59,615 nt of DNA from Craspedostauros australis (lineage: Eukaryota). The number at the start of each line of letters is the position of its first letter. Positions within the stretch are counted from its first letter, which is position 1. A program made the position numbers and the translations under genes. The stretch is taken from positions 1 through 59,615 of the forward strand of contig JALAGF010005194.1 of the NCBI GenBank assembly GCA_030167865.1. Reading direction: 5' to 3'. The notes under the pieces are model-generated. The model saw only the letters and a program-made list of their open reading frames with translations. It searched no databases and was not told where the DNA came from. Shown here piece by piece: positions 27,669 through 43,562 of this stretch.

Positions 27669-30600
27669 CTATGGGTTGTGGGCCTTTGCTGGGCACTTGT
27701 TGTAGGCCAGCGCGAACAACCGTTTCATCATCTCATCCTTGACGTAATGGAACGCCACGCTGCGCTTCGAGCAATGCTCCTTGCCTTCTCGGATGTCGAT
27801 GGAGTACTTGGCGTACCAGTCCTTCGTCTTGGACATGTCCTTAGGCAACCTGTAGTTCAAGTGATGTCCCGGCAGGAACGGCATGTATCGCTCCGATCCC
27901 TCCTCATCCTGCGTGTTGTACGGGTAGATGTCGAACTTCCGCAAGACCCTGGCCACCATCGTGTCCTCCGAGAAGGTCACCTTGTTGGGGAAGTACCTTG
28001 GAAATCCCTCCACGACCAGCGTCTTCAATGTCGCCTTGTTCATGGTGTATCCCGACCCACCGGAAATGAAGATGTTGTCCCTGTCGCCGCCGTACGCAAA
28101 TCGCCGGCCCAAGAACAGCGGCGTCTGCATCTTCGAGTCGCTGTTTTCATCCGGCAGGTACTCCCCGCCATTTGCGGCCGTGCGGATCTCCTCGCTCTCC
28201 AAGTACAGGCGCAAATTCTCCACCATGAGGAAGAGATCGTCGCCGCCGATGTGGAACCAGTCGTACTTTTCGTAGTAGTTGTCGTAAATGTAACTCCACA
28301 TCGATCGTACCTTCTGCCAGATATTGTTGTCTGTCGTCAGGCAAATGAATTCGTTGGTGCGTCGTTAGTGTGTTGTGCATTGTGATGGGTTCATGAGTAC
28401 CCAGATGGAGTTGAAGAAGCAGAACGGAATGAACAGAATCGAAGCATAAGCGACGATGAGGGGTCAGCTCTGCTTTTTGTGACAGCGCACAAACCAACCA
28501 AGCACCACTGTGTCCATAAACTCAAGAGACATGCAGTGCAATCCAACCCAATGCAATTTCAAAAGAGCAGAATACACAGCACACAAACACAGCAAACACT
28601 TACATGTCTCTTCTCCTGCATGAACGATGTCGACAGTCCCAAGAGCAACGTCAGTCTTGTTGGAACCAACGATGAAACCATCGCAGCTTGGTCTGGATGG
28701 ATCGTGATCATGGTGGCGGCGACGATGATGATTGTTGTGGTAGAAAAGGTATAATACAAGGCAGCGGTGGCGATTGCATGTGCGAGAATGTGAGTGACTT
28801 AAAATCCTGCATTGCCTGTTCAGATCTCAGCATACGCACACAGTCGAATAGAGTCGAGGATTCGACAACCACACAACACTGCAGCATGCGCGACGTCCAA
28901 AACTCCAGTGCGTAGCTGCGCGCAGCATCAATACTCGTAGATAGCATACTTTATCAGCACAAGCGCAAAGCACAAGCAGAGCACGAAGACGACGTACCCC
29001 CATGTCTCTCGGATGTTCTGCACTCTGGGGTGACCCGATTCGATGGTGTAGACAAGGCAGAAGATCTTGTCTCGCTTGACCCCGCTGTCTTCCTTCTGCT
29101 GATGCGTCTCAAAGTCGATGGACACACGGTCGTGCATCATCTTGTAGTGGGCATCGTGGGTCGAACATGCCTTCTTGAGACGCTTTTCGGGCATTTCGAA
29201 TCCCGGCGGGTTGTTTCGCAGCGCGGTCTCGTCGGCGATGTATCCCAATTCACCGTTCTCATACTTGGCTCCCATGTGAGGATGGTTCTTGTGGCCATCA
29301 GAAACGTCGACGAAGGTGATGTCGACTGGTTTGGCACGCTGCACGACCTCCAAGCACTGATCACATAATGGCTTGGATGGTCGTTGTCTCTTGACTTGGG
29401 ACAGATCCGGAATTGCATCTCCGCCATCCAAACCTTCAGCCTGACTGTCTTGCTGGTTTGGGTCTGCCTCATTGTTTGCGTTGTTACTTTGTGCGTCTTG
29501 TTGTTGCTGCTCTTCTTGCTGATCTTGTGCTTGCTGCTGGTCATCTGGCTGTTGCTGTTCGTCTTGCTGTCCCTGTTGTTGTTGTTGCTGATCTTGCGCT
29601 AGCTGCTGGTCATCTGGCTGTTCGTCTTGCTGTTGCTCCTGCTGTTGCTCGATATTTGATCCATCGCCACCATCACCACCTTGTTCGTTGTTGGCACGGA
29701 CATCCTCTTGCTGTTGTTGTTGCTGTTCTTCTTGTTGCTGTTCTTGCTGCTGCTCCTCCAACCGCTCTTCGCCTTGCTGATGCTGCTCCTCCAAGCCTTC
29801 CTTGATGGTGTCCGCATGCTCCTGCGCCGCATCTCCATCAAGGAGAAGATCGATCTGCGGACGATCCGTCTGCTCCTCGGGAATGACCTGCTGCAGGATA
29901 TCCGCCACTTGTGGGTTGACAGAATCCGCGTACCACGCAAAGGATCGGCACTTCTTGGGCAGATCGACCGGGAAATTGCCATCCTGCACGGCCTGCGACA
30001 TGAGGGTGCTCCACGCCAGCTGTGTCGTGGTGGCATCGTAGGCCTGCAGGAACTGCTTGCCCGTCATGTCGTCCATCCAGGCCGCAGCGAAGCGCGCCGC
30101 GAGCAGCGTCTCGATGAGGCCCTCGTCCTTGTTGGTGAGGATGGCGGCGCTCTCCGTGATGAGGGCATCCTGCAGCATGTCGATGCCGTCTCCGCAAAGC
30201 CAGAGGTTGAGGGAGAGATCGAGGTTGGCCGACCATTCATCATCGAGCGTGTCGTCCTGACATGGCAGGTTGATGTAGGTGTTGAGACGCATGGCCGTGG
30301 CCGCACCCTCCAAGGCCGGGGTGGAGTAGGACAGACCGTTGGATTGGTTGAGCTCGTCCGCCTTGGCCTCGATCGTCTGCGGCTCCATCTTGACGTTGAA
30401 GGCCGTGGCCTTGTTCGCGTTGTCGGTCGTCTGGAAGGAGACGGCGTTGGCCAGCTTCATGGCCACCTGATCGAGCTCCGTGTTGTCCTCTCCGCCGAGG
30501 GCCCAGTTGTTGCGTGCCGCTGCATTGACATCTGCCGCCGTATCGGCAACGATCGTACTGGGCTTGCGCTGCGACAGCAACGGCGGTGGCACGATGAGCG

Positions 30601-31333
30601 CCGACGTGACGGCCGGCAACCAGGAGGGGTTGACGAAGGCGCATCCCGTGCGCAGCAGGAGGAGAATGAGATCCTCCTGCACGCTCTTGAGGCTGGCCAG
30701 CTCGTGCGTCTCGGCCAGAACGCGGATGAAGTCCACCGCATCCTTGCGCGCCGCTCCCGTTCCCATGGGAACGTCACTGTCGTTCCAGATGAAGTGTATC
30801 TTGCGTCCGTGCTCGTCCTTGTCGCTGTCCGTGGGTTGGTGGTGCTGATCGCGGCGCATGCCATGCCAGTGCGGCACGCTGCCGGACTCCATGGTGCGCA
30901 GCTTGGTGACGAAGCCCTGGTAGTCGGCCTCCGCCATGCCGTCCATGACGACGCAGATGACGAAGATGCGGTTCCAGTCCGTGTTGGCCAGGATGGACTC
31001 CACGCTGTCCAGCACCATGTCCGTCTCCATGGAGGAGGAGACCACCAGGACCATGGCCACGCGAGGATGGGTGGGACCGTAGCCCAGCAGATCCACGCGG
31101 TCCAGCGCCGTGCGCAGGGTGAAGCGCGCTTCGGCAGGCACCAGCAGGCCGGGGTTCTTGCGGGCCAGCTGCGTCGATGCCCGCATGGTGCCTGGGTTGG
31201 AGGCACCGTACAGAGCCAGCAGCACCAGCGGCCAGAAGCAGGCCACCGCCAGCCAAAGCCTCGTCTGGTGGCTCTTGCTGTTCATCTGATCCGCTTTTCG
31301 GCCGCCGGAACGCATCGGTAACGTTCCCGTCAT
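27669..31333 (-). CDS. Type II membrane glycosyltransferase fusion: degenerate ppGalNAc-T (GT27)-like domain + Q-rich linker + C1GALT1-like (GT31) domain; 3 exons (31333-28998, 28692-28604, 28330-27669), 1028 aa
   Basis: Introns 28693-28997 (GTACGT..CAG) and 28331-28603 (GTAAGT..CAG) give the continuous KIFCLVYT...IRETWG-PSCDGFIVGSNKTD...GEET-YNNIWQKVRSMWSYIY..YDWFHIGGDDLF...ENLR...LGRRF...SGGSGY...EDTMVARVL...SVAFHYV. N-terminal TM anchor. Confidence 0.9.
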
Positions 31334-32098
31334 CTTACAGGGTAGGGTGTCTCTGCCTCCCTGCTATACGTCTCCCTGCTCGGATCAGTGCAGGTCAGTG
31401 AAAGATTGTGAGGAGACCAAGGTTGGATGCAATTCTCACCATCTTGTCGTTCGGTCGATGCCCAACGGGTAGTTTGGGAGGAAACGCGAGCAAAAGGTCA
31501 TCTGAGCGCCCTCTCGAAGTTCTCCTGTTTTGTGCACAATTGTGATCGAACGGGTCGTCAATGACTTGACGGATACGGACAAGAAAGACACGAATCGGTC
31601 TCGCTGCTGGAAACCACGATTGAACAGTTCGCTGCGACAGAAAAGTTCTCATCCATGGATTTACACAGAAAGGACGCATAAAGCTCTTTTTCATGAACTC
31701 CTTTTTTCAATTTTCTGTGTCCGTCTCCAAAGAACAGCGATGCAGAAGCTCGGGATTCATGAATTTCGGCCAGTTTTGGGTTGATGCTGGTGATGTCAGC
31801 GATTCAAAATTGTTCGAATGGCGCCAGACAGAAACGAGAAGGAGAGAGATGCGCCAAGTGCCAGGGACAGACGAGATGAGTGTGCGACTTTGAGCCAGTG
31901 TTACTGCGTACGACTGCGCAGCTGTCACAAGCTCGCACGCAGAACAGGAATACCCCAGAAATCCAAAAGAGGCAGTTTCCTCACAGTGCCGCCTTGAACA
32001 AGACACAAACTCAAGCCGTCTGTTTGCACAGAAGACAAGATCGACATCAGCGAAGCAGCATCAACCAAGCAACATCAGCACCAGCGCCAACGATCACC

Positions 32099-34458
32099 AT
32101 GAAGTGGACTCTCCCAACGACCGCATCCTTCTGGATTGCTCTGTGCGCCACCGCTACGGCGAACGCTCATCTTCCGCACGGGCACAATCATCATGGCGAT
32201 CATGCGCATGGAATGGGTAAGCGAAGCGTCAATCACGATGGTGCTGTGGAGAAATTCGGGGTCCGCTCCGAAGTTGCATGGCTCCTGGCTGTTGAACGGA
32301 TGTGAGAGAGTGCCATCAGGGGTGATGATGAAGCGAATGCATGTGGATATGGTCTGTCGTGAGCCTGCCATTTGATATCTGCTAGGCCATGGCTCCGTTG
32401 TTCAGAACGGCCCTCATCTGCCTTCACGCATCAGATTCAGTGGGTATGGGATGAAATGGAACGAGATGAGATCGAAGAACTTCTCTGCCATCACGACCAC
32501 CGCATTCTTCACAAGAGAGGATTTATGTTTGAGTGCGATGGAGAGTAGCCAGGAGTGCTCTATTAGAGTATTCATCAACAATCAACAACAATCAACAACA
32601 GATTGCTTATTCACGCATCGACTCACCTTGCATCTCATTTCACCTCATCTCTCACTCCACATTGCCTCCTTCCTCTGGGATAACATGCAATTGCCTGGCG
32701 ATCTTTCCTTCATCGTGGTTTGGTGTTGGGATATTATTACTCGTCTCGCTTGCGATTGTCGCATTCACTTGAACATCGATGTGAACGTTTCAAGCAGTTC
32801 ACGAACACGAGCATGGGCACGAGCATGGGCACGAACATCACCATGGCCATGATCACAGCCACAACTATCACGGCAAGAACCATCACGGCCACAACAACCT
32901 TCGACACGAGATCAACGACCAAGTGTCCGACGATGGCAGCGAAAGGGAACCAGCCATGCTCCCACACACCCATGTGGCGTATCATCACGTCGAACAGGCC
33001 TGCCGACAGGATCTGGATCGTCTGTGCTCGACGGGACTTCAACACCCACTCTTCATTCTGGAACCTGCCCCAGTTTCCCGCATCTCAGGCGCACCACCAG
33101 CACCACCATCGTCCATGATGGAGCAGGACGACCCGTTCGCATCGATGGAGCAATTCATGCGGGAGATGGATCGCATCCTGGATCACACCATCAATGTGCA
33201 CCACCAGGCCATCCTTGTGGTTGGTGATGACAGCAGCGGCCATGGCGATAGCGTTCACGTCTTCTCCTCTGTCGGCACGGACCAATCACTGCCACCGCCA
33301 CCACCTCCTGCCGGTTTGATGGGAGGCTCCGATCCATTCCTTGACATGGTCGTCAACGACCTCGTCATGACCATGCTCATGGTCCAGCCACCTCCAAATG
33401 AGCCAATGCCCATCATCGCGCAGTCGCAGGCACAGGCACCACCACCATGCGACGAGGAACTGCCAAAGCTTGCCGAAGGCCTCCAGCAGTACGGAAAGCA
33501 GGTGCTCGCAGACCAGGCCGAGGGCAGCGCTCCCGATGCTGCCGCTGACACCAAGGTCCACGTCGCACGTCGCCTTTCCGAGGTCACAACCCGCGACTTG
33601 GAACGGCTGCGTCAGAAACTTCGTCTCCCCTTCACCAAGGATGAACGCATGTGCCTGGCTCAGAACTACCGCCAGCTCTCCAGCAAGTGCGCGCGTTCCA
33701 TCCACATCTTCCGCGAGGTGGCCGAAGGAGAGATCAAGTACGCAAAGGAACAGTCCGAATTCTGCTCCCTCCTCTGGGTGTACATCGCCCTCGTCTCCGT
33801 CCTCATGGTCTTCGTCGTGCTCAAGTTCCAGAAGCGCGCACCGAAGAGGATCCTCAAGCGTCTCATCCTCCAGGCCGTGTACGACAACCCAGACCTCAAG
33901 AGATCCGTCGAGGCTGACTTGGGAGTTGGATCCATCGGTTCCCGACCACCCATGAAGAACCTTGATTCCGAAGGCGACGGTGGCAACAGCTGCCGTTACA
34001 ACCTCAAGACAGCCATGATCTTCGTCATCTTCGCCTTGGTCTTCATCGCCCCCAATTTGGTCCTGCCAATCTGCATTGGAATCACGGCAACGAAGGTCAT
34101 CCGCCTTGCGCATTACCTTTTCGTGTCCGATGGCGAGGATGGACATGAATGCAACAACCGTGACAATGATCACAAGGAAGGATGCTGCTGCTGCTGTTGC
34201 TGCTGCGACAACGGGTCTCCAGACAGCGAGGCCGGTGTCAAGGAATGCTGCGACATGAAGTGCTGCGACAAGAAGTGCTGTGGCGACGGGTGCTGCTGCT
34301 GCTGCAACAACGACGATGCTGCTGATGGTTGTTGCTGCGGAACGACCTGCTGCGAATGCTGCAGCAAGTCCACCCCCGAACCCAAGGGCCGTGGTGAGAA
34401 GCACCGCATCCAGGCCGAGGTCGCCGTCTTCCAGGGCGTTCCCGTCCGAGTTGTTTAG
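32099..34458 (+). CDS. Secretory-pathway membrane protein with His-rich N-terminus and poly-Cys C-terminal tail; 2 exons (32099-32216, 32798-34458), 592 aa
   Basis: accATG + signal peptide (MKWTLPTTASFWIALCATATANA). Intron 32217-32797 (GTAAGC...AGCAG) joins HAHGM-VHEHEHGH in frame with the 32923 ORF. TM segments and strong codon bias. Confidence 0.82.
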
Positions 34459-35950
34459 GGTACAACGACATCACTCGCAGAGCACTACGTAAGTATTTGT
34501 GGGCAGACCAGTGTTGATACATTACGCACGCTGTCCCAAGTCAGTTCTCACTTTAAAGGACCGGAGAGAACATCATCTGCAATTGCGCGGCAACCAACCA
34601 AGCAAGGCAAGGAATGTCCAAACGCAGCGCCAGCAGATTGGGATGAGAATTCACAACCGACTAATGGACTTCGATGGGCAGACTGGTAAAACTAGAGAAC
34701 ATCTAAATATGAACCAATTTTCTCGACGCGATGGTGACATCCTCTCTGCGCCTACAGAAGAGAGAGAGAAAGAGGGTAGCGCACTACAACTCCATGCTCG
34801 GATTAGCAGTTGTGGTCTCCATCGGTCGCCCAATTTCGCAGAAGTTGTCGCCATCGCATTCGTACGCCGCGCGATGTCATGTGCCTGCATCACCCATTGA
34901 GGACACCTGGCTAGGAAGACAAGGGGCGGTGGATGACGGGCACGGCTGCGCAATCAGAATCTCCGTGTTGATGGAAGGCGTGCGAACCTGGCGAAATGGA
35001 ATTTGTGGACATTTTCGTTTCGCGATCCGCAGTTGTTCGTGAATGAGATGAAGCGGGTCACGGAAGCGAACGCGGATGCAGCCTTCACACGCTGATTGGG
35101 TCTGTCGAGGCTAAATCAGTGATACCATCATGGTTTCCGATGACCCGAACCGTTCTTCTCGTTGTCATTATACCTGATCTATCCCTAGCAGTTGATGTAC
35201 AAGAGTGGTTTAACTTTCAGTTGTATTTTCATCGTTCACCGATCCCGCTTCTTGGGATAAACCGACATTGACCACAAAATGATAAGCCCCGCCTGTCTAA
35301 ACATAATCGCGGATACGGGAAAAAGGCTCTCCACGAAGCGCGAGGCTGCGGCGTGTTCGTGCCGAGCCTTCGCCACGTGCTTATCGCTGGTGTTGTTGCC
35401 ACACGTTTTGCAGCTTCACGAGAGCGGTGAAACAATCACCGAATGGCTCGCACAGTGGTGAAAGGCGGAAGAAGCAGTGCACAGAAAATGGCGCAAACCA
35501 GCGGCCAAGGCAACGCGCGTGTTCGCACTGCGCCGCGCAAGAACAGTCCCTGGAGACAACCAAGATCAAGCGGGACATCCATGGCACGGGCGCCACCACG
35601 GTTGTGAACATCGCGAGGCAAGAACGGTAACAGAAGCAACAGTAAAACAGCTCCCATGAGTGACAAAGAGAGCAGCGGCAACAACAAGACCGTGACACCG
35701 CACCGCCGCAACAGTCCAGAGACGAACGACAGGAAGGATCAGGAGCAACAGAGGATCGACGGCAGCGACAACAGCAACGATAGCAACGATAGCAAGGACA
35801 GCAACAACACCTCCACGAGCACCATCCGCGACGAGGGAAGAGAGAACACGAACACCCAGACGAAAGAGAGCAGGCGTTCGGAGTGTAACCGCACGAACAT
35901 TGTCCAAATACTCCGGCTCGTGGGAGAGCAGAACACAGCGCACCGCACAA

Positions 35951-36010: not shown

Positions 36011-36374
36011 CTACACTCTCAACAGCTCGCATACGTGCACAAGTTACGAGCACTCCACTCCGTTCCGCTCGACCCCAAGCACACAAAGCACACAAAGCAT
36101 CCCAATAGACTGCGGAGAAAGACAAAGAGCGAAGCAATCTGATCAGCTCCGGCGATTGGTAGCGATCCCACAAAGGAAGTCACACCATTCACTGCATCGA
36201 AGCGCCTTCTGCTCTTTGGATTGTTGCATTGGCGTTGTCGCTACGCGTGCTCTGACAATAGCAGCAGCAGCAGAAGCAATAGCTGAGGAAGAAACGGAAC
36301 GAAGCAGGTAGAGACGGTTGGTCTTGGCGGAGTTAACTCACAGACCAGCGCAGCAGAGGGTGGAGAAGCTTGAG

Positions 36375-39300
36375 ATGCACCAGCAAGCCTGCTTGCCATC
36401 AGGACTCGCTTCCGAGTCAGCGCAGCAGAAGCGATCATCAGCACGATCACTCTCGGCAATGGCAGCCACAGCAGCGAGGACAATGGCGACCATGACCACC
36501 ATGACGACCCTGACATCATCTCCCACGGAAACAGAGCCAACCGCAGACCCTTCATTGCAGCAGGAGGAGGTCCACGTCGAATCACGTACACAATCGCATG
36601 CTACAAGGATGAATCAAGAGTGCGGGGGCCACGATCACCATGATCGCCATGTTGGGGATTGCGAAGGCGCAGAGTGCGCGCAGCATGCAAAGCTCTCAAC
36701 GCCACAGCGGCCATCAGCAATGGAACTCTGCAGCTGGACAACAAGTGCGAGCACCAGCACAGCGACGAGCATGGGGATGAGCACGGATACTTCGTGCGAA
36801 CAGAATTGCGCTTCGGTCGTGCGTTTGCAGGCACACGAGGTCCTCGACAATGGTCACCTCTGTCTCCATCCGCGCAACGAAACCTGTTCCGGCACTCACT
36901 CCGTGTACATGCGCAATGAACCGAGTGTTGCAGGACACGATCAGATGTACACGTACGCGTACGCGGGAGAACAGGAGAAATGTCAGGAGGGACAACCAGT
37001 GAAGGACTCTCGATTCTCTGCAGGCTTCACATCTTCGCATTCCCATCATGATGCCGCGGCGACATGCACAAGCGCATGCGCAATCAAAGGAGCGCCATGG
37101 GTCCGAAGCGCCTATTCCTCTACATCCTCGCATATACGAGTATTGGTGGTGTGTTCGTGGATGTATCGCTACTTGTTCTCGCAGAGCACCTATCAGCAGC
37201 AGCAACAGCAACAACGGAGACGACAGAAGCACGGCAGGAGCAAAGCACACCGCCGAACGAATGACTCCAGACAACGACTGGCGATCCTGATGCCGTTCCT
37301 TACATGCCTCCTGACCCTTCCGCTCTTTGCAACAACCGTGGACGCATCTGCGACCGCCATCGCACTGGACAACGTCGCGTTGCAGACAACCACGCAGTAC
37401 CTCCAGATCCTAGAGCAAACGCCGCACCAGATGGCCCTCGTTCTCAGCGATCTATTTGCCACGGACGCCATCTCTCCCGATGCGACCAACAGAGACTTCG
37501 TCCTGCGCATGCTATACTCGCATTCCAAGATGTACAACAGCATCGTCCCCAACAACGGCAATCTATACCCCCTCTCATCCTCCAGGACAGCATCGCATCA
37601 ACTGCTCTATCACAACGAATACCAGCTCTACTACGGTCTCGAGAGCGGCTATTTCTTGGGATACGGACCCAACCTAGTCTCGGGATGGTACCGCGAACCA
37701 GGCAACGCCTACCATGTTGCCGATGCATCCAGTGACAACAACAGTGGCAGCGCCAACAACAACGCAGATGATCCAGAAATCAGCCTCGAGCAAAAGCTGT
37801 TTTGGGAATCCTGCGTCGATTCGTTTTCGGGTGATTACATCAACTGCAGCATGGAGACGCCTCGGTCAGTCCTCACCGACGATGAAGGCTACCGCTTCGA
37901 TCAGGACTCCTTCGAGTACGTGGTGTCCACCTCGACAGCGACGTCGACCTCCACATCCAACTCGCAGGCAACGCTCCAAAACGACCCCAGCTTGTTGGGG
38001 TTGGAGACCACGTACGAACCATGCCCGGATCAACAATCGCAGAAGGATTGCTCCAAGCTAACCACGAGGACGGAAGAGAGCAGCTGCCTCTTCAATCGCA
38101 AGCTCTGTCCCTCCTATCAAATACGCACCCTGCGTGACGTTGCGGGCCTCTCCCAAACGCAGGACTCGCTGCAGCTCGGCTTTGTCCCGCACACGCGCCA
38201 TTGCATCAACCGCGATGGAGAGTTCACGCACACGGTTGGCGATGTCATCATGTTCGACAAATCCACGCAGCAGGTCACCAACGGCAACATGTGCACCTTT
38301 GACAATGGCAGGGTCGTCCACGGCAGCAGCCAAGGTCAGCTCACCGACGCCGACGATCAGCTCCAGACGGCATCATCGTCATCGCAGCAGCATCATCATC
38401 ATCAGTCTCACATCGATGCAACCGGCACCATGCTCGAAGGACCCTATGCTTACTGTCAGAGGTATCCGCCAGGTCAAGACAGCTCTTTGGAACAAGAGAA
38501 CGCGATGGCATTGGCGGCGTTGGCCGCGATCTCGGGCAACATTCAACCTGCGGGACCAGCAATCTGCAGCGACACCTTCGTGGGATACCAAAAGTCGCAG
38601 AACTTTGATCCAAGGCTGCGTCCTTGGTACCGCGAAACGCGACAGCGACAGCGGTCTCTGTGGACGCAGGCGTACGAATTCTTCGAACCGGAAAGCGAGG
38701 AGAACGTCTACGGCATCACCTTCACCGTCCCGCTCTACCAGCCCGAAGAACAGCTCAAACGGGACATCGTCATCAAGAACGCCAACCACACCAGCACAAC
38801 TGAAAATAGCAACGTCAGGCGCCGCGCACAAGCGGCAGAGGCCGAATTGTCCACTGTGATAGGTTCCGCATCGTCCACGTCCGGATTCTTCAGCGATCGC
38901 CCTTACTTTCAAGGCGTGCTGGCGGTCGACACGAGATTGGACAAGATCTCGCGTCGTCTGCAGGGTATCATGGAGGAGACGATGGACCTTGCCGGGCGCA
39001 CGCACTCGCATCCTCAGGATCCAGACTTCACCATCTTCATCACGGAGATGACTCCACCCTACAACCTCATCGCCACCTCCATCCCCGACATCCCGCTCGT
39101 CATCAAGCTCGGAGAGTCCTCCACCACGTCCCGTTCGTCCACCACCAAGGATCATGTCAGGATCAACATGCAAGATTACGAAGATCAGCTGCAATCTCTG
39201 CGTGCGCAACAGCAGCGCGATCGCAACGACAAAAGCAAGGGTCACACCGCCTCACCGGTCCTCGACGCGGACTGGATATCAGTCGTTCCCATCGCTCACA

Positions 39301-42300
39301 GCGCCATCTTGAGGAAGCGCGGAGGAGGAGGTCGAACGCACGCATCATACGGCCATCCCAAACCCATCAGCGCGCACGTGTCGAAACCCAACGAATCGCG
39401 CAAGATCTATCACGTCCAGGGACAGTCCTACCATTCGGCCGGATCGCGCGGATATCATGACGAAGGAGACTGCTGGCGATGGCAGATCCTTGTCATTTCC
39501 AAGGTCGACACCAACGTGCAAACGTCGGCGACCATCACGCACGGCGAACCGCTGTTCGGTGGCATCCTCTTCATGTCCTTCTTCGCCTTCTTGTTGACGG
39601 CGGGATTCACGGTGATGGTGCACATCTGTCCCAAATTGCGCAAACAGCAACACATTCGCAAGAGCCTGGACAACGCGGTCGTCGCACGCTCGCGATCGAG
39701 CTGGCGCGCAGGTGCCGCATCTGCACCGATGCAGACTGCAGCAGCATTTGCCGCATCCAGGTCGGCGCCCGTCAGAGGTGCCACATCGGAACACATGTTG
39801 CGCCATTCCGATTCCGCATCCTCTTCTTCAACGAAGGACCGTGGCATGTGGCAATACCTGCGGCGTCGCAGCCGAGCCAAGCCTTCCGACCAGACAAAGA
39901 TCACCACCGGAGATCCTGCGGACGACAAGGTGGGATCCACCAACAATTCCAACACAGGCAGCACCAGCAGCGCCGAAAGTCACATGGGTGCCGAGAACGA
40001 AGAGACCAACAGCAACAAGACTGGCCGAGACGGAAATGGCGACGATGCTTCTGATCCAAAGGACGCAAATGCGAACGAGGATGACGGAGACAGCCTGGGT
40101 CAATCCAGCGACGACGTCAAAAGCAACCACATGATCAGCAGCAGCAATCGCCGCATCGATACGAACCCACAATTGCCAGGAACGTCCCATTCCGACGTCG
40201 CAAGCCAACGAGAAAGCCAACAGCGACGATTCCGGCGCATGCCATCGTCATCCCCGTCGTCTTCCTCTCCAAGGATTTCCAACGCGGCCTTCATTCGGCA
40301 GGCCGATTATCAGTTCACATCCGCCTTTCTGTTCTTATGCATCCTCCTCTCGCTGGTCCCACTTGTCATGCTGGGAGAGAACACGGATCCGCTGTGCGTG
40401 GCGCGAGATTGGGCCGTCTGGATGATGCTCACCATCACCGTATCCCCATTCCTCATGAAGGGTATCTTCATGCACCAGCTGGTCTCTCAAAACGCGAACA
40501 TCCGCGGGAACAGCAACGGCAATGTCAACGGCAGTCCCAGCAACAGCGACAATGGACGAAGCGGCAGGTTTGCCAGCTTCATTTCCAGGTCGAGGTCAAG
40601 CGGAAGCCTGGGCGGCAGCAACCATTCCAACAGATCGAAATTCTGGCCAGTCAAGATGTCCAACGCTCAGGCGTTCCTCTATATGCTCCCAATTCCTTTG
40701 GTGCAAGCGATTATCTTGACGACAGAAACCCTGCTGGATCCCCAACGCACCGCGGTTGTGTGGGACGAAGAGGAGAACATGAACATCGTCCTGTGTCTTC
40801 ACGATGAGGACATCTCCGGTGCCACGAAAACAATCAGGGCGCTCAAGGGCGTTTGGATCGTGATACTGGCCATCGTGGCCGTTGGTCTTGCCTATAGAAT
40901 TCGAAGGCTGGATTCGACGTTGCCAGAATCACGGTCCTTCGTTGTCTGCGTCGCGAACTGGATCGTGACAATGGTGGCCGTCGTCCCCGTGATCTGCTAC
41001 TGTCCCAACCTGCACGAGCAGGGACAGAAGGCGGTCATCGGTTTTGCTGTCGTGTGGTTGGCAACCACATCGGTGCTCATCTACACCCTCCCATCCGTTG
41101 TGATATGCTGGGGATGGGTGGACTCTGCAAGGCACGGCGGCAGGGCCGCCCTCGTCCGTCAGCTATCAAACAGGGTTGCCTCATCATGCATGGTCAGTTC
41201 ATGGAACCATGGCCTACCATCTCCACGGGTTGGGCCAAGCAGCAACCTTGGCACGAGTCCAACCATGGGCACCACTTTCTACAACGGCCGTGGCTCCCCC
41301 GGATACAATCCAGTCTTGCACGGAAATCGTCAGCAATCGTTCCAGAACTGTCGAACATCCAGCACGACCACCATGCGTACATCCAACTACAGCACGAGCA
41401 CGGACCCACGTACGTCGCATCGCAATTCGAGCACTGACATGACGACCCACATATCGAACGTGGACACGTCCGCAGAACCGCCTTCTTCTTCTTCACGGCA
41501 GCGTTCCATGCGAGGGACATCGTCCTCCCACAGCAGTGATTTTGGCAACAGCAGCAGCAGCAACCACAACAATTACAATTACAACAACGGCACATCTGCT
41601 GGCTTGTTCGGCGAAAATCACGGCTCCAGGTCTCATCCTCCGTCCATTCAAACAGTCCGCAGCATGGCATCGGCCGGATCCACCGATGATGGTTCCGTCA
41701 ACTCGGCCTCATCGAACACACCATCCAAGTTCAATTCGTGGAAGGCATTCTCCACTCGCCAATCCATTTCATCCGCAACGACAACTTCCGCACCTTCTTC
41801 GGCGGCAGCAGCGGCGGCATTGGTAGCAGCAGGTGCGACAGGTGCACCGGCCGCTGCGAAACGGCCAAAGCCGGCCAGCTTGGCGGCGTTGAGTCGTCCC
41901 GAACGCAACAACCAGCCACGACCCACCAAGCGTTGGACTCCACCAGACGCTCCCGCCGAAGCTTCGCAAGATCAGTACATGCTGGAGCAGGTTGATGAGG
42001 GTTCGAACGAGATCTCGAATGAAATGTCAGCAGCTATGTCCGAACTCACGAATCAAGTCCAATCTCCAAGCGAGGAGCTGAGAATGGTTCAGCAGCAGCA
42101 GCAGCAACAAACGCATTCCCACCACTCGCAACGGTCACAGGAACAGCATCAATATCAACAGACCATGATCCCCGATGCGGGAGAAGGCCTGGCAACCCAG
42201 CCACAAGGCAACCTCGAACCGCACGAGATGATGGACCAGCAAGCACTGCCATCCACGATGGTGCAGGGATTGCCACCGGGTGTGCCACAAGGTACAAATA

Positions 42301-43562
42301 TGCCAGGTCAGGCTTTGGAGCCTCACGAAATGGTGCCTCAGCAGCCTTACGTAACCAATCCAGGTCAATTCTTGGAACCTCATGAGATACCGTACCAAGA
42401 TCCGTACGCGACGAATGCTGCTGCTGCTGGCCAGTACCTGGAACCACACGAGATGCCCTATCAGGACCCATACGCAGCAACAAGCAGCGACGGCCAGTAC
42501 CTCGAACCCCATGAGCGCATGGACAGGCAGGTATCAAGACCAGAGCGTGCCTATATTCTCCACGAAGGCGAGGAGTACGACAGCGAACTCATGGCGAGGA
42601 TGCTGATGCCAAACGTCGGCAGCGACGCAGCCGAAGCAGAACTTGGACCGAGCTACTACCATCAACAGCAGCTGCAGAAGATGGACGAACAGAGGAATGC
42701 AGCATACCAGATGCAACAGTTCCAAGGCGGGGCTGGTCCTGATGCTGGCGCAGCCGCAGGCGTTGCGATGGAGCCGCATGAGCGCTATAACATGATTCCA
42801 GAACATGTGCACAACCAAGAGGGAGCGCCGAGTTCACAAGAACCTCACGAAATGATCATGGTGGTCCCTCCTCCTCCTCCGCACCCTTCTTCCGCTGCCA
42901 CCGCTCCCATTCCTCCTGCTGCGGCATCATTACCAGCAGAGATGGAAGGTGACGTTGCAGTACAAATATACGAAGGCGAAGATGATGGCATCGATCCACA
43001 AATCCATCAGCATGCTGGAGGGAACGAGCTGCGGGGTGAAGCTCGATGGAAGAGCTTCAGCAAACACAGCAACAATGCCAATATCTCGAAGGTCACTAAT
43101 GCCCAGGGAGATATTGAAGAAGATGACAGGAAGATTGCAGCGGTGGAAGGCAACAGGGCCACTGCCGCCAATCCGCGCCAACAAGAGCAGCATGTCGTTC
43201 AGCAGCACCGACAGCACCAACAGGACCTGCAATATCTGGAGACAGGCGAGGAGAATCACTTCGCCGAAGAAATCCCCGCAGAAGCTTCCGCAGATCCGGA
43301 GGGGCACTGCGCCGAGGCAGCAGGCGGTGAAGGCGTCGCACGCATCCCCATCCAACAAATCCCGATCCCCCATCGTAACTCCCGCAGCTCGTCCAACCAC
43401 CGCCTGACGTCGTTGCGCCGCGGTTCTGACGAAGTGTCGCGCGTGTCGTTCGACGACAGCTACTTCTCGGCAGGCGACTCGACGATTGAAGAGATGATGG
43501 TGCACAGGCAATTGCCCGAAGACGAAGCCAACTGGTACTTCCGCAATGGTTTCAATCCTTAA
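36375..43562 (+). CDS. Large class C (7tm_3/GABA-B-like) GPCR-like receptor with extracellular dCache-like domain; true start uncertain (36375, 37161 or later)
   Basis: 7.2-kb uninterrupted ORF. Cache motifs FDPRLRPWY..WTQAY..GITFTVPLY..FQGVLAVD. 7TM motifs IRQADYQF..LCVARDW..PFLMK and LAYRIRRLDSTLPESR. Signal-like hydrophobic stretch near 37280-37350. Confidence 0.85.
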   Translation: MHQQACLPSGLASESAQQKRSSARSLSAMAATAARTMATMTTMTTLTSSPTETEPTADPSLQQEEVHVESRTQSHATRMNQECGGHDHHDRHVGDCEGAECAQHAKLSTPQRPSAMELCSWTTSASTSTATSMGMSTDTSCEQNCASVVRLQAHEVLDNGHLCLHPRNETCSGTHSVYMRNEPSVAGHDQMYTYAYAGEQEKCQEGQPVKDSRFSAGFTSSHSHHDAAATCTSACAIKGAPWVRSAYSSTSSHIRVLVVCSWMYRYLFSQSTYQQQQQQQRRRQKHGRSKAHRRTNDSRQRLAILMPFLTCLLTLPLFATTVDASATAIALDNVALQTTTQYLQILEQTPHQMALVLSDLFATDAISPDATNRDFVLRMLYSHSKMYNSIVPNNGNLYPLSSSRTASHQLLYHNEYQLYYGLESGYFLGYGPNLVSGWYREPGNAYHVADASSDNNSGSANNNADDPEISLEQKLFWESCVDSFSGDYINCSMETPRSVLTDDEGYRFDQDSFEYVVSTSTATSTSTSNSQATLQNDPSLLGLETTYEPCPDQQSQKDCSKLTTRTEESSCLFNRKLCPSYQIRTLRDVAGLSQTQDSLQLGFVPHTRHCINRDGEFTHTVGDVIMFDKSTQQVTNGNMCTFDNGRVVHGSSQGQLTDADDQLQTASSSSQQHHHHQSHIDATGTMLEGPYAYCQRYPPGQDSSLEQENAMALAALAAISGNIQPAGPAICSDTFVGYQKSQNFDPRLRPWYRETRQRQRSLWTQAYEFFEPESEENVYGITFTVPLYQPEEQLKRDIVIKNANHTSTTENSNVRRRAQAAEAELSTVIGSASSTSGFFSDRPYFQGVLAVDTRLDKISRRLQGIMEETMDLAGRTHSHPQDPDFTIFITEMTPPYNLIATSIPDIPLVIKLGESSTTSRSSTTKDHVRINMQDYEDQLQSLRAQQQRDRNDKSKGHTASPVLDADWISVVPIAHSAILRKRGGGGRTHASYGHPKPISAHVSKPNESRKIYHVQGQSYHSAGSRGYHDEGDCWRWQILVISKVDTNVQTSATITHGEPLFGGILFMSFFAFLLTAGFTVMVHICPKLRKQQHIRKSLDNAVVARSRSSWRAGAASAPMQTAAAFAASRSAPVRGATSEHMLRHSDSASSSSTKDRGMWQYLRRRSRAKPSDQTKITTGDPADDKVGSTNNSNTGSTSSAESHMGAENEETNSNKTGRDGNGDDASDPKDANANEDDGDSLGQSSDDVKSNHMISSSNRRIDTNPQLPGTSHSDVASQRESQQRRFRRMPSSSPSSSSPRISNAAFIRQADYQFTSAFLFLCILLSLVPLVMLGENTDPLCVARDWAVWMMLTITVSPFLMKGIFMHQLVSQNANIRGNSNGNVNGSPSNSDNGRSGRFASFISRSRSSGSLGGSNHSNRSKFWPVKMSNAQAFLYMLPIPLVQAIILTTETLLDPQRTAVVWDEEENMNIVLCLHDEDISGATKTIRALKGVWIVILAIVAVGLAYRIRRLDSTLPESRSFVVCVANWIVTMVAVVPVICYCPNLHEQGQKAVIGFAVVWLATTSVLIYTLPSVVICWGWVDSARHGGRAALVRQLSNRVASSCMVSSWNHGLPSPRVGPSSNLGTSPTMGTTFYNGRGSPGYNPVLHGNRQQSFQNCRTSSTTTMRTSNYSTSTDPRTSHRNSSTDMTTHISNVDTSAEPPSSSSRQRSMRGTSSSHSSDFGNSSSSNHNNYNYNNGTSAGLFGENHGSRSHPPSIQTVRSMASAGSTDDGSVNSASSNTPSKFNSWKAFSTRQSISSATTTSAPSSAAAAAALVAAGATGAPAAAKRPKPASLAALSRPERNNQPRPTKRWTPPDAPAEASQDQYMLEQVDEGSNEISNEMSAAMSELTNQVQSPSEELRMVQQQQQQQTHSHHSQRSQEQHQYQQTMIPDAGEGLATQPQGNLEPHEMMDQQALPSTMVQGLPPGVPQGTNMPGQALEPHEMVPQQPYVTNPGQFLEPHEIPYQDPYATNAAAAGQYLEPHEMPYQDPYAATSSDGQYLEPHERMDRQVSRPERAYILHEGEEYDSELMARMLMPNVGSDAAEAELGPSYYHQQQLQKMDEQRNAAYQMQQFQGGAGPDAGAAAGVAMEPHERYNMIPEHVHNQEGAPSSQEPHEMIMVVPPPPPHPSSAATAPIPPAAASLPAEMEGDVAVQIYEGEDDGIDPQIHQHAGGNELRGEARWKSFSKHSNNANISKVTNAQGDIEEDDRKIAAVEGNRATAANPRQQEQHVVQQHRQHQQDLQYLETGEENHFAEEIPAEASADPEGHCAEAAGGEGVARIPIQQIPIPHRNSRSSSNHRLTSLRRGSDEVSRVSFDDSYFSAGDSTIEEMMVHRQLPEDEANWYFRNGFNP

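Follow-up and report, generated by a model that had tools for sequence, protein, structure and literature searches.

The window considered here is a stretch of 59,615 nucleotides from the diatom Craspedostauros australis (assembly GCA_030167865.1, contig JALAGF010005194.1, positions 1 to 59,615, forward strand), and the gene in question lies at 32099..34458 on its plus strand. The gene is real and spliced, and its product is a divergent member of an unnamed, widespread and previously undescribed family of membrane proteins. The product carries a dense His tract behind a predicted signal peptide and a dense Cys tail behind its membrane segments. The reading preferred here, with a probability of roughly 0.4, is that the protein is a receptor, processed and trafficked in the secretory pathway, which captures divalent metal and is not a channel.

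Gene and protein layout

The coding region begins with an ATG at 32099. Exon 1 (32099..32216) encodes residues 1-39 and the first base of codon 40, and is separated from exon 2 (32798..34458, up to the stop codon) by a GT..AG intron of 581 nt (32217..32797), which lies in phase 1 and splits the codon G|TT. This intron had been proposed in an earlier note made from the letters of the DNA, and its use is borne out by two records. In run X1, which is RNA by a guess from its record and may come from the same strain as the genome, a contig joins 32215 to 32797 and skips 581 nt (GT..AG, cut +1). The X1 contigs cover 31993-32215, 32797-33205 and 33177-34712, with 0 differing letters and 0 gaps relative to the window. 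Because an intron-less contig is the expected product of spliced RNA, splicing is taken as shown at the RNA level. The second record is a database protein of transcriptome source (P0005, 592 aa), which is identical to the spliced product along its full length. The first X1 contig begins at 31993 and the second ends at 34712, which gives a 5' untranslated region of 31993..32098 and a 3' untranslated region of 34459..34712. The gene is absent from runs X2 and X3. Searches of the genome with two different query proteins matched this locus alone, so that one copy is a lower bound.

The His tract contains 24 His in 53 residues (24-76), as the earlier note had claimed; seven of these are encoded in exon 1 (32168..32216) and 17 in exon 2 (residues 41-76, 32800..32907). 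The signal peptide (residues 1-23, 32099..32167) was called from its hydrophobic core and the small residues at -1/-3, by our own heuristic and not by SignalP, and the predicted cleavage leaves His24 as the first residue. The AlphaFold model places a helix at residues 8-20 within it. The Cys tail (residues 491-561, 34150..34362) contains 27 Cys in 71 residues, in runs of 1, 8, 2, 2, 2, 5, 3, 2 and 2; the number had been given correctly before, but the list of runs had left out the lone first Cys. The density of the His tract or of the Cys tail was matched in 0 of 2000 shuffles of the protein, and among the open reading frames (ORFs) of at least 150 aa in the window the exon-2 ORF ranks first for both His and Cys windows.

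Between the two tracts, several elements may be recognized. A clade-conserved motif, H-x-H-x-x-Y-H-H (32962..32994), stands at the start of a helix at residues 95-116, and is followed by a lumenal Cys pair, C108 and C116 (C-x2-D-x4-C, 33001..33027). The sequence ARRLSE (33565..33582, with RRL at residues 297-299) is a candidate protease site of the diatom RXL or TEXEL type. A second lumenal Cys pair, C325 and C337 (C-L-x7-S-x2-C, 33652..33690), precedes the first transmembrane segment (TM1; residues 362-381, 33763..33822), which lies within a long predicted helix (335-402) and has a basic stretch after it. Then come a conserved, putatively cytosolic helical motif, IL-x-AVY-x-NP-x2-K-x2-VE-x2-LG...G-x2-PP (33853..33951), and a second hydrophobic segment (about residues 444-481, 34009..34122) with a central Pro458, which probably forms a helical hairpin with both ends in the cytosol. 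Behind the Cys tail, a C-terminal x-G-V-P-x-x-V-V motif (34426..34455), with Phe here and Tyr in most relatives, is a candidate sorting or adaptor ligand. The AlphaFold model (predicted local distance difference test, pLDDT, 66.9 overall) has a helical ectodomain, helices 437-456 and 458-483 split at Pro458, and, in the absence of metal, disordered His and Cys tracts. The ectodomain modelled alone is all-helical (pLDDT 76.3).

The family, its core and its tracts

Relatives were collected with a profile of the core (residues 93-481), from which both tracts were excluded, and were clustered at 50% identity. The profile retrieved 143 clusters at E <= 0.001, 96 of these at 1e-10. Of the 24 clusters looked up, most are without a name; every one that can be assigned by organism name or taxon id belongs to a diatom, and the named members are from Phaeodactylum tricornutum (XP_002182712.1), Seminavis robusta, Tryblionella compressa, Pseudo-nitzschia pungens and Eucampia antarctica. 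The counts below refer to an alignment (A4) of 123 of 167 proteins: 126 of 300-750 residues were kept after 12 near-duplicates had been dropped, five partial or weak rows were then removed and two shorter ones added. Many of its rows are truncated at the N-terminus, so that His is under-counted, and the most distant rows are weak matches. In the FastTree phylogeny, the clade of the present protein comprises 35 rows (Shimodaira-Hasegawa support 95), and the protein forms its longest branch (1.33).

Known families gave little in return. Pfam yielded no credible match, whether for the protein as a whole, for any of its six parts, or for the 15 near and 67 additional members scanned; PDB sequences yielded none at E <= 0.001 with either of two profiles; and Foldseek yielded none at E <= 0.001 with the whole and lumenal models. 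The best VIA fold scores were Z 7.1 (root mean square deviation 4.6, 109 aligned) and Z 6.5 (2.7, 63 aligned); on the models, such matches would represent common helical arrangements, which indicate neither difference nor novelty. Neither this protein nor its P. tricornutum relative had a usable match in the ESM Atlas, and from a metagenome scan just two contigs came back, both short and transcript-like. A literature search by accession and topic, which covered few subscription papers, brought up no description of the family. None of the P. tricornutum accessions appears in 12 of the 16 supplements of PMC7972479, in the one supplement of PMC8779346 or in the four of PMC9010474, whose tables may use JGI or Phatr3 identifiers.

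The core is well conserved. C108 and C116 are present in 95% and 94% of the rows, and C325 and C337 are invariant (123/123). In ARRL(S/T)E, the two R, the L and the E are conserved in 105, 107, 106 and 83 of 114 rows, respectively (RRL, 92-94%). Most positions of the cytosolic helical motif are conserved at 55-90%, and in the C-terminal motif Pro is found in 109/123, the terminal Val in 93/105 and Tyr in 74/120. In most of the top fold-search rows, the two ends of the ectodomain model are matched with helical hairpins over about 50-70 residues, from which it is inferred that helix 95-116 lies packed against helix 335-360. Such packing, if the models hold, would draw both Cys pairs close to each other and put the H-x-H-x3-H-H motif near the membrane. 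The lumenal part of two distant members, P0125 and P0149, includes a thioredoxin domain (E about 1e-8), which hints at a redox link of the ectodomain.

The two lumenal Cys pairs recall what we take to be the halves of the GLG1 (Cys_rich_FGFR, PF00839) repeat. No test supported this likeness: the pairs are about 200 residues apart, unlike in the GLG1 repeat, the PF00839 hidden Markov model matched neither the whole proteins nor their two halves (a split repeat would be missed), and no clear fold match was seen. In the genome of C. australis itself, PF00839 gives one match, under the cut-off and with a stop inside.

Removal of a segment at RXL by an unknown protease is reported for diatom silaffins and is probable for Sin1, according to passages of PMC5525289, PMC5647440 and PMC5501833, and, in part of PMC4764566, Toxoplasma MYR1 is described as being cut internally at RRLSE by the Golgi protease ASP5. 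By analogy, the present protein may be cleaved at its RRL.

In the relatives, the tail is an ordered repeat of 42 residues and 13 Cys, C-x-CCCC-x8-G-x-LT-x-EQ-x-CC-x-CC-x-G-x-G-x-C-x3-C-x2-CC, of which 62 strict copies were found, with 0-6 knuckles per protein. The DnaJ-type CxxCxGxG occurs in 63/123 members, and such repeats bind Zn in LQY1, according to passages of PMC6805722. Cys is confined to the tail family-wide (18.4% in tails and 0.2% in lumenal inserts). The present tail, which had been called metallothionein-like, is better described as a degenerate version of this ordered repeat than as a metallothionein. In P0002, a Cys-poor stretch stands where its cluster mates P0006-P0009 carry the Cys repeat (36 vs 54 Cys), which is probably a local frame error in the record. 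P0043 is 1010 residues long, with 94 Cys in total, the family core from near residue 430 and a long extra N-terminal region.

His patches, defined as at least eight His in 40 residues upstream of TM1, occur in 31/123 members, all upstream of TM1; tail His is 1.0% family-wide. The patches occupy three sites, namely the N-terminus, C116-RRL and RRL-C325, which differ between clades. By the same heuristic as above, predicted signal cleavage leaves His first in 10/44 starts, including those of the distant P0062, P0112, P0119 and P0127, and a His in this position would give a free amino-terminal His site. The four His of the H-x-H-x-x-Y-H-H motif are found in 20/22, 20/22, 19/21 and 20/21 of the long clade members that have the residue (about 90%). 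In P. tricornutum, the member of the family carries the Cys repeat and no N-terminal His tract.

It had been asked whether homologues keep both tracts, and the answer depends on the relatives chosen. Among the 24 long clade members, 14 have a His patch, 20 a Cys tail and 12 both, so that the joint occurrence is usual in the nearest long relatives. All 11 short clade members have neither tract; one of their clusters is Pseudo-nitzschia pungens, and these absences represent few independent events. With these members, and with 38 of the 123 family-wide, a circumstance that the earlier note had named as refuting its reading, orthologues without both tracts, is in part encountered. In the P0036 clade (including P. 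pungens) and in L005, neither the hairpin nor the Cys tail remains and most of the His motif is gone, whereas the C-terminal motif, RRL and all four Cys persist. In L004, P0033 and P0038, the hairpin is present without a Cys tail. Judged by sequence, the His and Cys parts may be accessory modules on a more ancient core, each of which can be lost separately.

Sidedness, the proposed metal capture and the alternatives

The earlier note had suggested that the His and Cys tracts lie on opposite sides of a membrane. This placement is supported by three lines of argument from topology. First, the flank directly after TM1 is strongly basic across the family (K/R 0.41 per residue), which indicates that the loop there is cytosolic. 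Second, 13 members stop soon after TM1 without a second segment, and 10 of these bear the shared C-terminal motif, which is also found in 65/110 long members (L005, which likewise lacks the second segment, bears it too). Because the motif follows directly on TM1 in these forms, it should be cytosolic, and the second segment of the long members must then be a hairpin. Third, the uncharged span of the second segment has a median of 29 residues, compared with 22 for TM1 (110 long members), and its central Pro (93/100) is preceded by A, S, N or D. Therefore, it appears that the Cys tail is very probably cytosolic and the His tract lumenal or extracellular.

With this topology, the following course of events may be proposed. 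The spliced gene is translated into 592 residues, and removal of the signal peptide would leave a free N-terminal His and the His tract on the lumenal or extracellular side. A Golgi-type protease would cut after RRL, and disulfides linking C108/C116 with C325/C337 would hold the His-bearing N-terminal piece to the membrane-anchored piece. As expected from His chemistry, the amine of His1, the His tract and the H-x-H-x3-H-H motif would bind Zn, Cu, Ni or Co at neutral pH, and bound metal would be released in an acidic compartment. The hairpin would very likely bring the Cys tail and the C-terminal motif into the cytosol. The most speculative step is the last, in which the Cys repeat may fold round Zn (or Cu/Cd) as thiolate clusters, with its first Cys possibly S-acylated, and the repeat, together with the C-terminal motif, may make the sorting of the receptor dependent on metal status in the cytosol. 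The metal-capture reading rests on the finding that His patches are only lumenal, at three sites in distant clades, and that Cys is found only in the tail. Further support comes from the His that follow predicted signal cleavage, the conserved His of the helix motif, the ordered Cys repeat with its Zn-binding counterpart in LQY1, the conserved RRL, and the joint absence of both tracts from the 11 short clade members. The transmembrane helices have no conserved polar ligand residue, which argues against a pore.

Several observations weigh against metal capture. The metal tracts are less conserved than the four lumenal Cys, the RRL site and the motif on the cytosolic side, which are the most conserved parts. 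RRL closes a confident helix (287-300, pLDDT about 94) and may, on the model, be structural. The present tail retains Cys runs without the GxG knuckle (the form CC-x-G-x-G-x-C is absent). Tails are rich in N-glycosylation sequons (104/431 Asn, vs 21/860 in the lumenal part), and N in the repeat is positively associated with S/T two positions on, mostly as N-G-T (17/8/14/27 of 66, kinship ignored); this pattern would fit a lumenal tail, although the present protein has no sequon. The two kinds of tract, moreover, show no association: among the 123 members, a His patch is present in 31 and a Cys tail in 72, the two together in 18, the tail alone in 54 and neither in 38 (odds ratio 0.97, Fisher p = 1.0). 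For the 42 rows that begin with a signal-like sequence, the counts are 8/4/11/19 (p = 0.098). Finally, the window shows no neighbouring gene related to metal, and no expression or metal-binding data were found for the family. From the absent association and the tract losses, it follows that an obligatory His-to-Cys relay is not the shared function of the family.

A serious though unlikely alternative is that the protein serves general trafficking, or is a scaffold, in the Golgi, endosome or vacuole, and that metal handling is not its job. The Cys repeat would then be a structural Zn finger, a site of multiple S-acylation, or both, binding partners or membranes, and the His tract a lineage-specific extra, pH-sensitive or simply of low complexity. 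This explanation accounts for the retention of the core where either tract is lost (38/123 lack both), for the conservation of the cytosolic motif and the ligand-like C-terminal motif, and for the single copy found in the genome with the two queries. It also suits the first tail Cys, which stands 10 residues past the hairpin, a usual place for S-acylation. It is less easily reconciled with the recurrence of lumenal His patches at three sites in separate clades, with His following the signal peptide in 10/44 starts, and with Cys up to 80 residues from the membrane and up to six knuckle copies, which exceed what anchoring needs.

An extension of metal capture is also conceivable, in which the family is a new diatom class of two-sided transmembrane trace-metal sensor or receptor. 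The two-chain, RRL-processed and disulfide-tied ectodomain would read outside metal by its His sites; one continuous helix would link it to the cytosolic 13-Cys repeat, which would read inside metal; both inputs would set endocytosis or signalling, and the repeat would have a metal-thiolate fold of a new kind. Taken jointly, these propositions are improbable.

It is rather more doubtful that the protein belongs to the silica deposition vesicle or cell wall, where it would be RXL-processed like silicanin-1 and the SAPs and where its His piece would meet silica or polyamines in an acidic vesicle. Signal peptide, RXL, lumenal Cys, transmembrane segment and conserved cytosolic part do recall the layouts of silicanin-1 (Sin1)/SiMat7-like proteins and SAPs, as far as these are described in passages of PMC5525289, PMC5501833 and PMC5647440, and the named members are all diatoms. 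However, the RRL is internal, at 297-299, about 275 residues past the signal peptide rather than about 30 as in the stretch of Sin1 (a passage of PMC5525289); there are four conserved lumenal Cys and not eight (a passage of PMC5501833), together with a hairpin and Cys tail; and no N/Q- or Ser-rich region is present. Silicanin families comprise 10-15 genes, compared with the one copy found here, and the distant clades are without names, so that the family may not be restricted to silicifiers.

Another arrangement would have the second segment span the membrane once, so that the tail is lumenal or extracellular, on the same side as the His tract, and forms a disulfide-knotted, glycosylated repeat of adhesive or structural use. 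The enrichment of sequons in the tail and the association of N-G-[ST] in the repeat speak for it, but N-G is also suitable as a helix cap, and in 41/66 repeat copies the N is replaced by A, L, Y, K or E. The shared C-terminal motif directly after TM1 in 10/13 of the one-segment forms, and a second segment of about 30 residues whose conserved central Pro follows small polar residues, render this arrangement very improbable.

The layout also invites comparison with a copper channel of three helices. The CTR/COPT copper transporters constitute PF04145. No Ctr match in Pfam was obtained among the 15 + 67 members scanned, the transmembrane residues have no conserved polar position, and viable forms with a single transmembrane segment exist. 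A His-rich outer N-terminus, three hydrophobic helices and a Cys-rich cytosolic C-terminus agree with the description of CTR proteins in part of PMC9502191 (the sidedness here being predicted), but the signature MxxxM-x12-GxxxG given there occurs in 0/123 members; the large disulfide ectodomain with its RRL site, which CTR/COPT proteins lack, is a further difference. A CTR-like channel is therefore most unlikely.

The weakest explanation, neutral slippage of CAC/CAT and TGC repeats, which the earlier note had raised for the Cys, may draw on the TGC codons of 24/27 tail Cys, on the longest branch of the clade and on C8 and C5 runs exceeding the C4 of the family, but it is ruled out as the origin of the tail, because the tail is an ordered repeat in 72/123 members, TGT breaks up the runs, and TGC is favoured elsewhere as well, including neighbouring genes (9:4, 26:10, 8:0). 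At most, slippage may have lengthened single Cys runs here.

Metal capture by a tethered receptor has parallels among known proteins. ZCRP-B and ISIP2a/phytotransferrin are single-transmembrane proteins proposed, in passages of PMC9010474, to concentrate metal at the diatom surface. The present protein resembles them in its membrane-tethered outer part with putative metal binding, its lack of a pore and the proposed capture with hand-over or endocytosis (in the same passages), but differs in its His-tract chemistry and added cytosolic Cys repeat, and is apparently not related to them. Neither a NikA (solute-binding-protein) fold nor a transferrin fold was found by PDB or Pfam sequence matching or among the fold rows, and the ectodomain model is all-helical. 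With the membrane-tethered LQY1, as described in part of PMC6805722, the family shares CxxCxGxG (63/123 relatives). Unlike DnaJ-type fingers, with four knuckles and two Zn, it has one knuckle per repeat of 13 Cys and 42 residues, and the present tail has none. Like metallothioneins, the tail has 38% Cys, CC clusters, no aromatic residue and disorder without metal; unlike them, it is acidic, is fused to a 490-residue membrane protein, derives from a structured repeat and has no Pfam match. Membership of the CTR, metallothionein and silicanin families was thus rejected in each case, and the layout recalls known membrane-tethered metal binders.

Neighbouring genes and significance

The divergent neighbour on the minus strand (27669-31363), about 0.75 kb upstream, seemingly combines two glycosyltransferase domains in one gene. 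Its last exon matches a core 1 beta-1,3-galactosyltransferase (7q4i, E 1e-21), and its first part weakly matches polypeptide GalNAc-transferases (6/6 rows, E 0.04-0.09) with no Pfam match. From these matches, it may be a two-step initiator of mucin-type O-glycans in one chain. On the plus strand, 36312-43562 is an ORF of 2416 residues with a class C G protein-coupled receptor-type 7tm_3 domain (E 1.6e-20), a weak PDC sensor domain match and a very long low-complexity tail. On the minus strand, 23853-24932 matches TMEM151 weakly (E 2.9e-4, under the cut-off).

In large parts of the ocean, diatoms are limited in their growth by trace metals, and the diatom proteins known to capture metal at the surface, like the known diatom metallothioneins, are few; for example, a 2020 review lists, in the part that deals with them, one predicted diatom metallothionein (PMC7216689). 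With its His on the outer and its ordered Cys repeat on the inner side, this undescribed and apparently single-copy family offers a concrete candidate for a protein that captures, buffers or senses metal. The P. tricornutum member (XP_002182712.1) makes the family open to testing, and the natural variants with both, one or neither tract provide built-in controls. In addition, the conserved RRL(S/T)E extends the unexplained RXL processing of diatoms beyond silica proteins, and links it to the TEXEL/PEXEL sites of the Apicomplexa.

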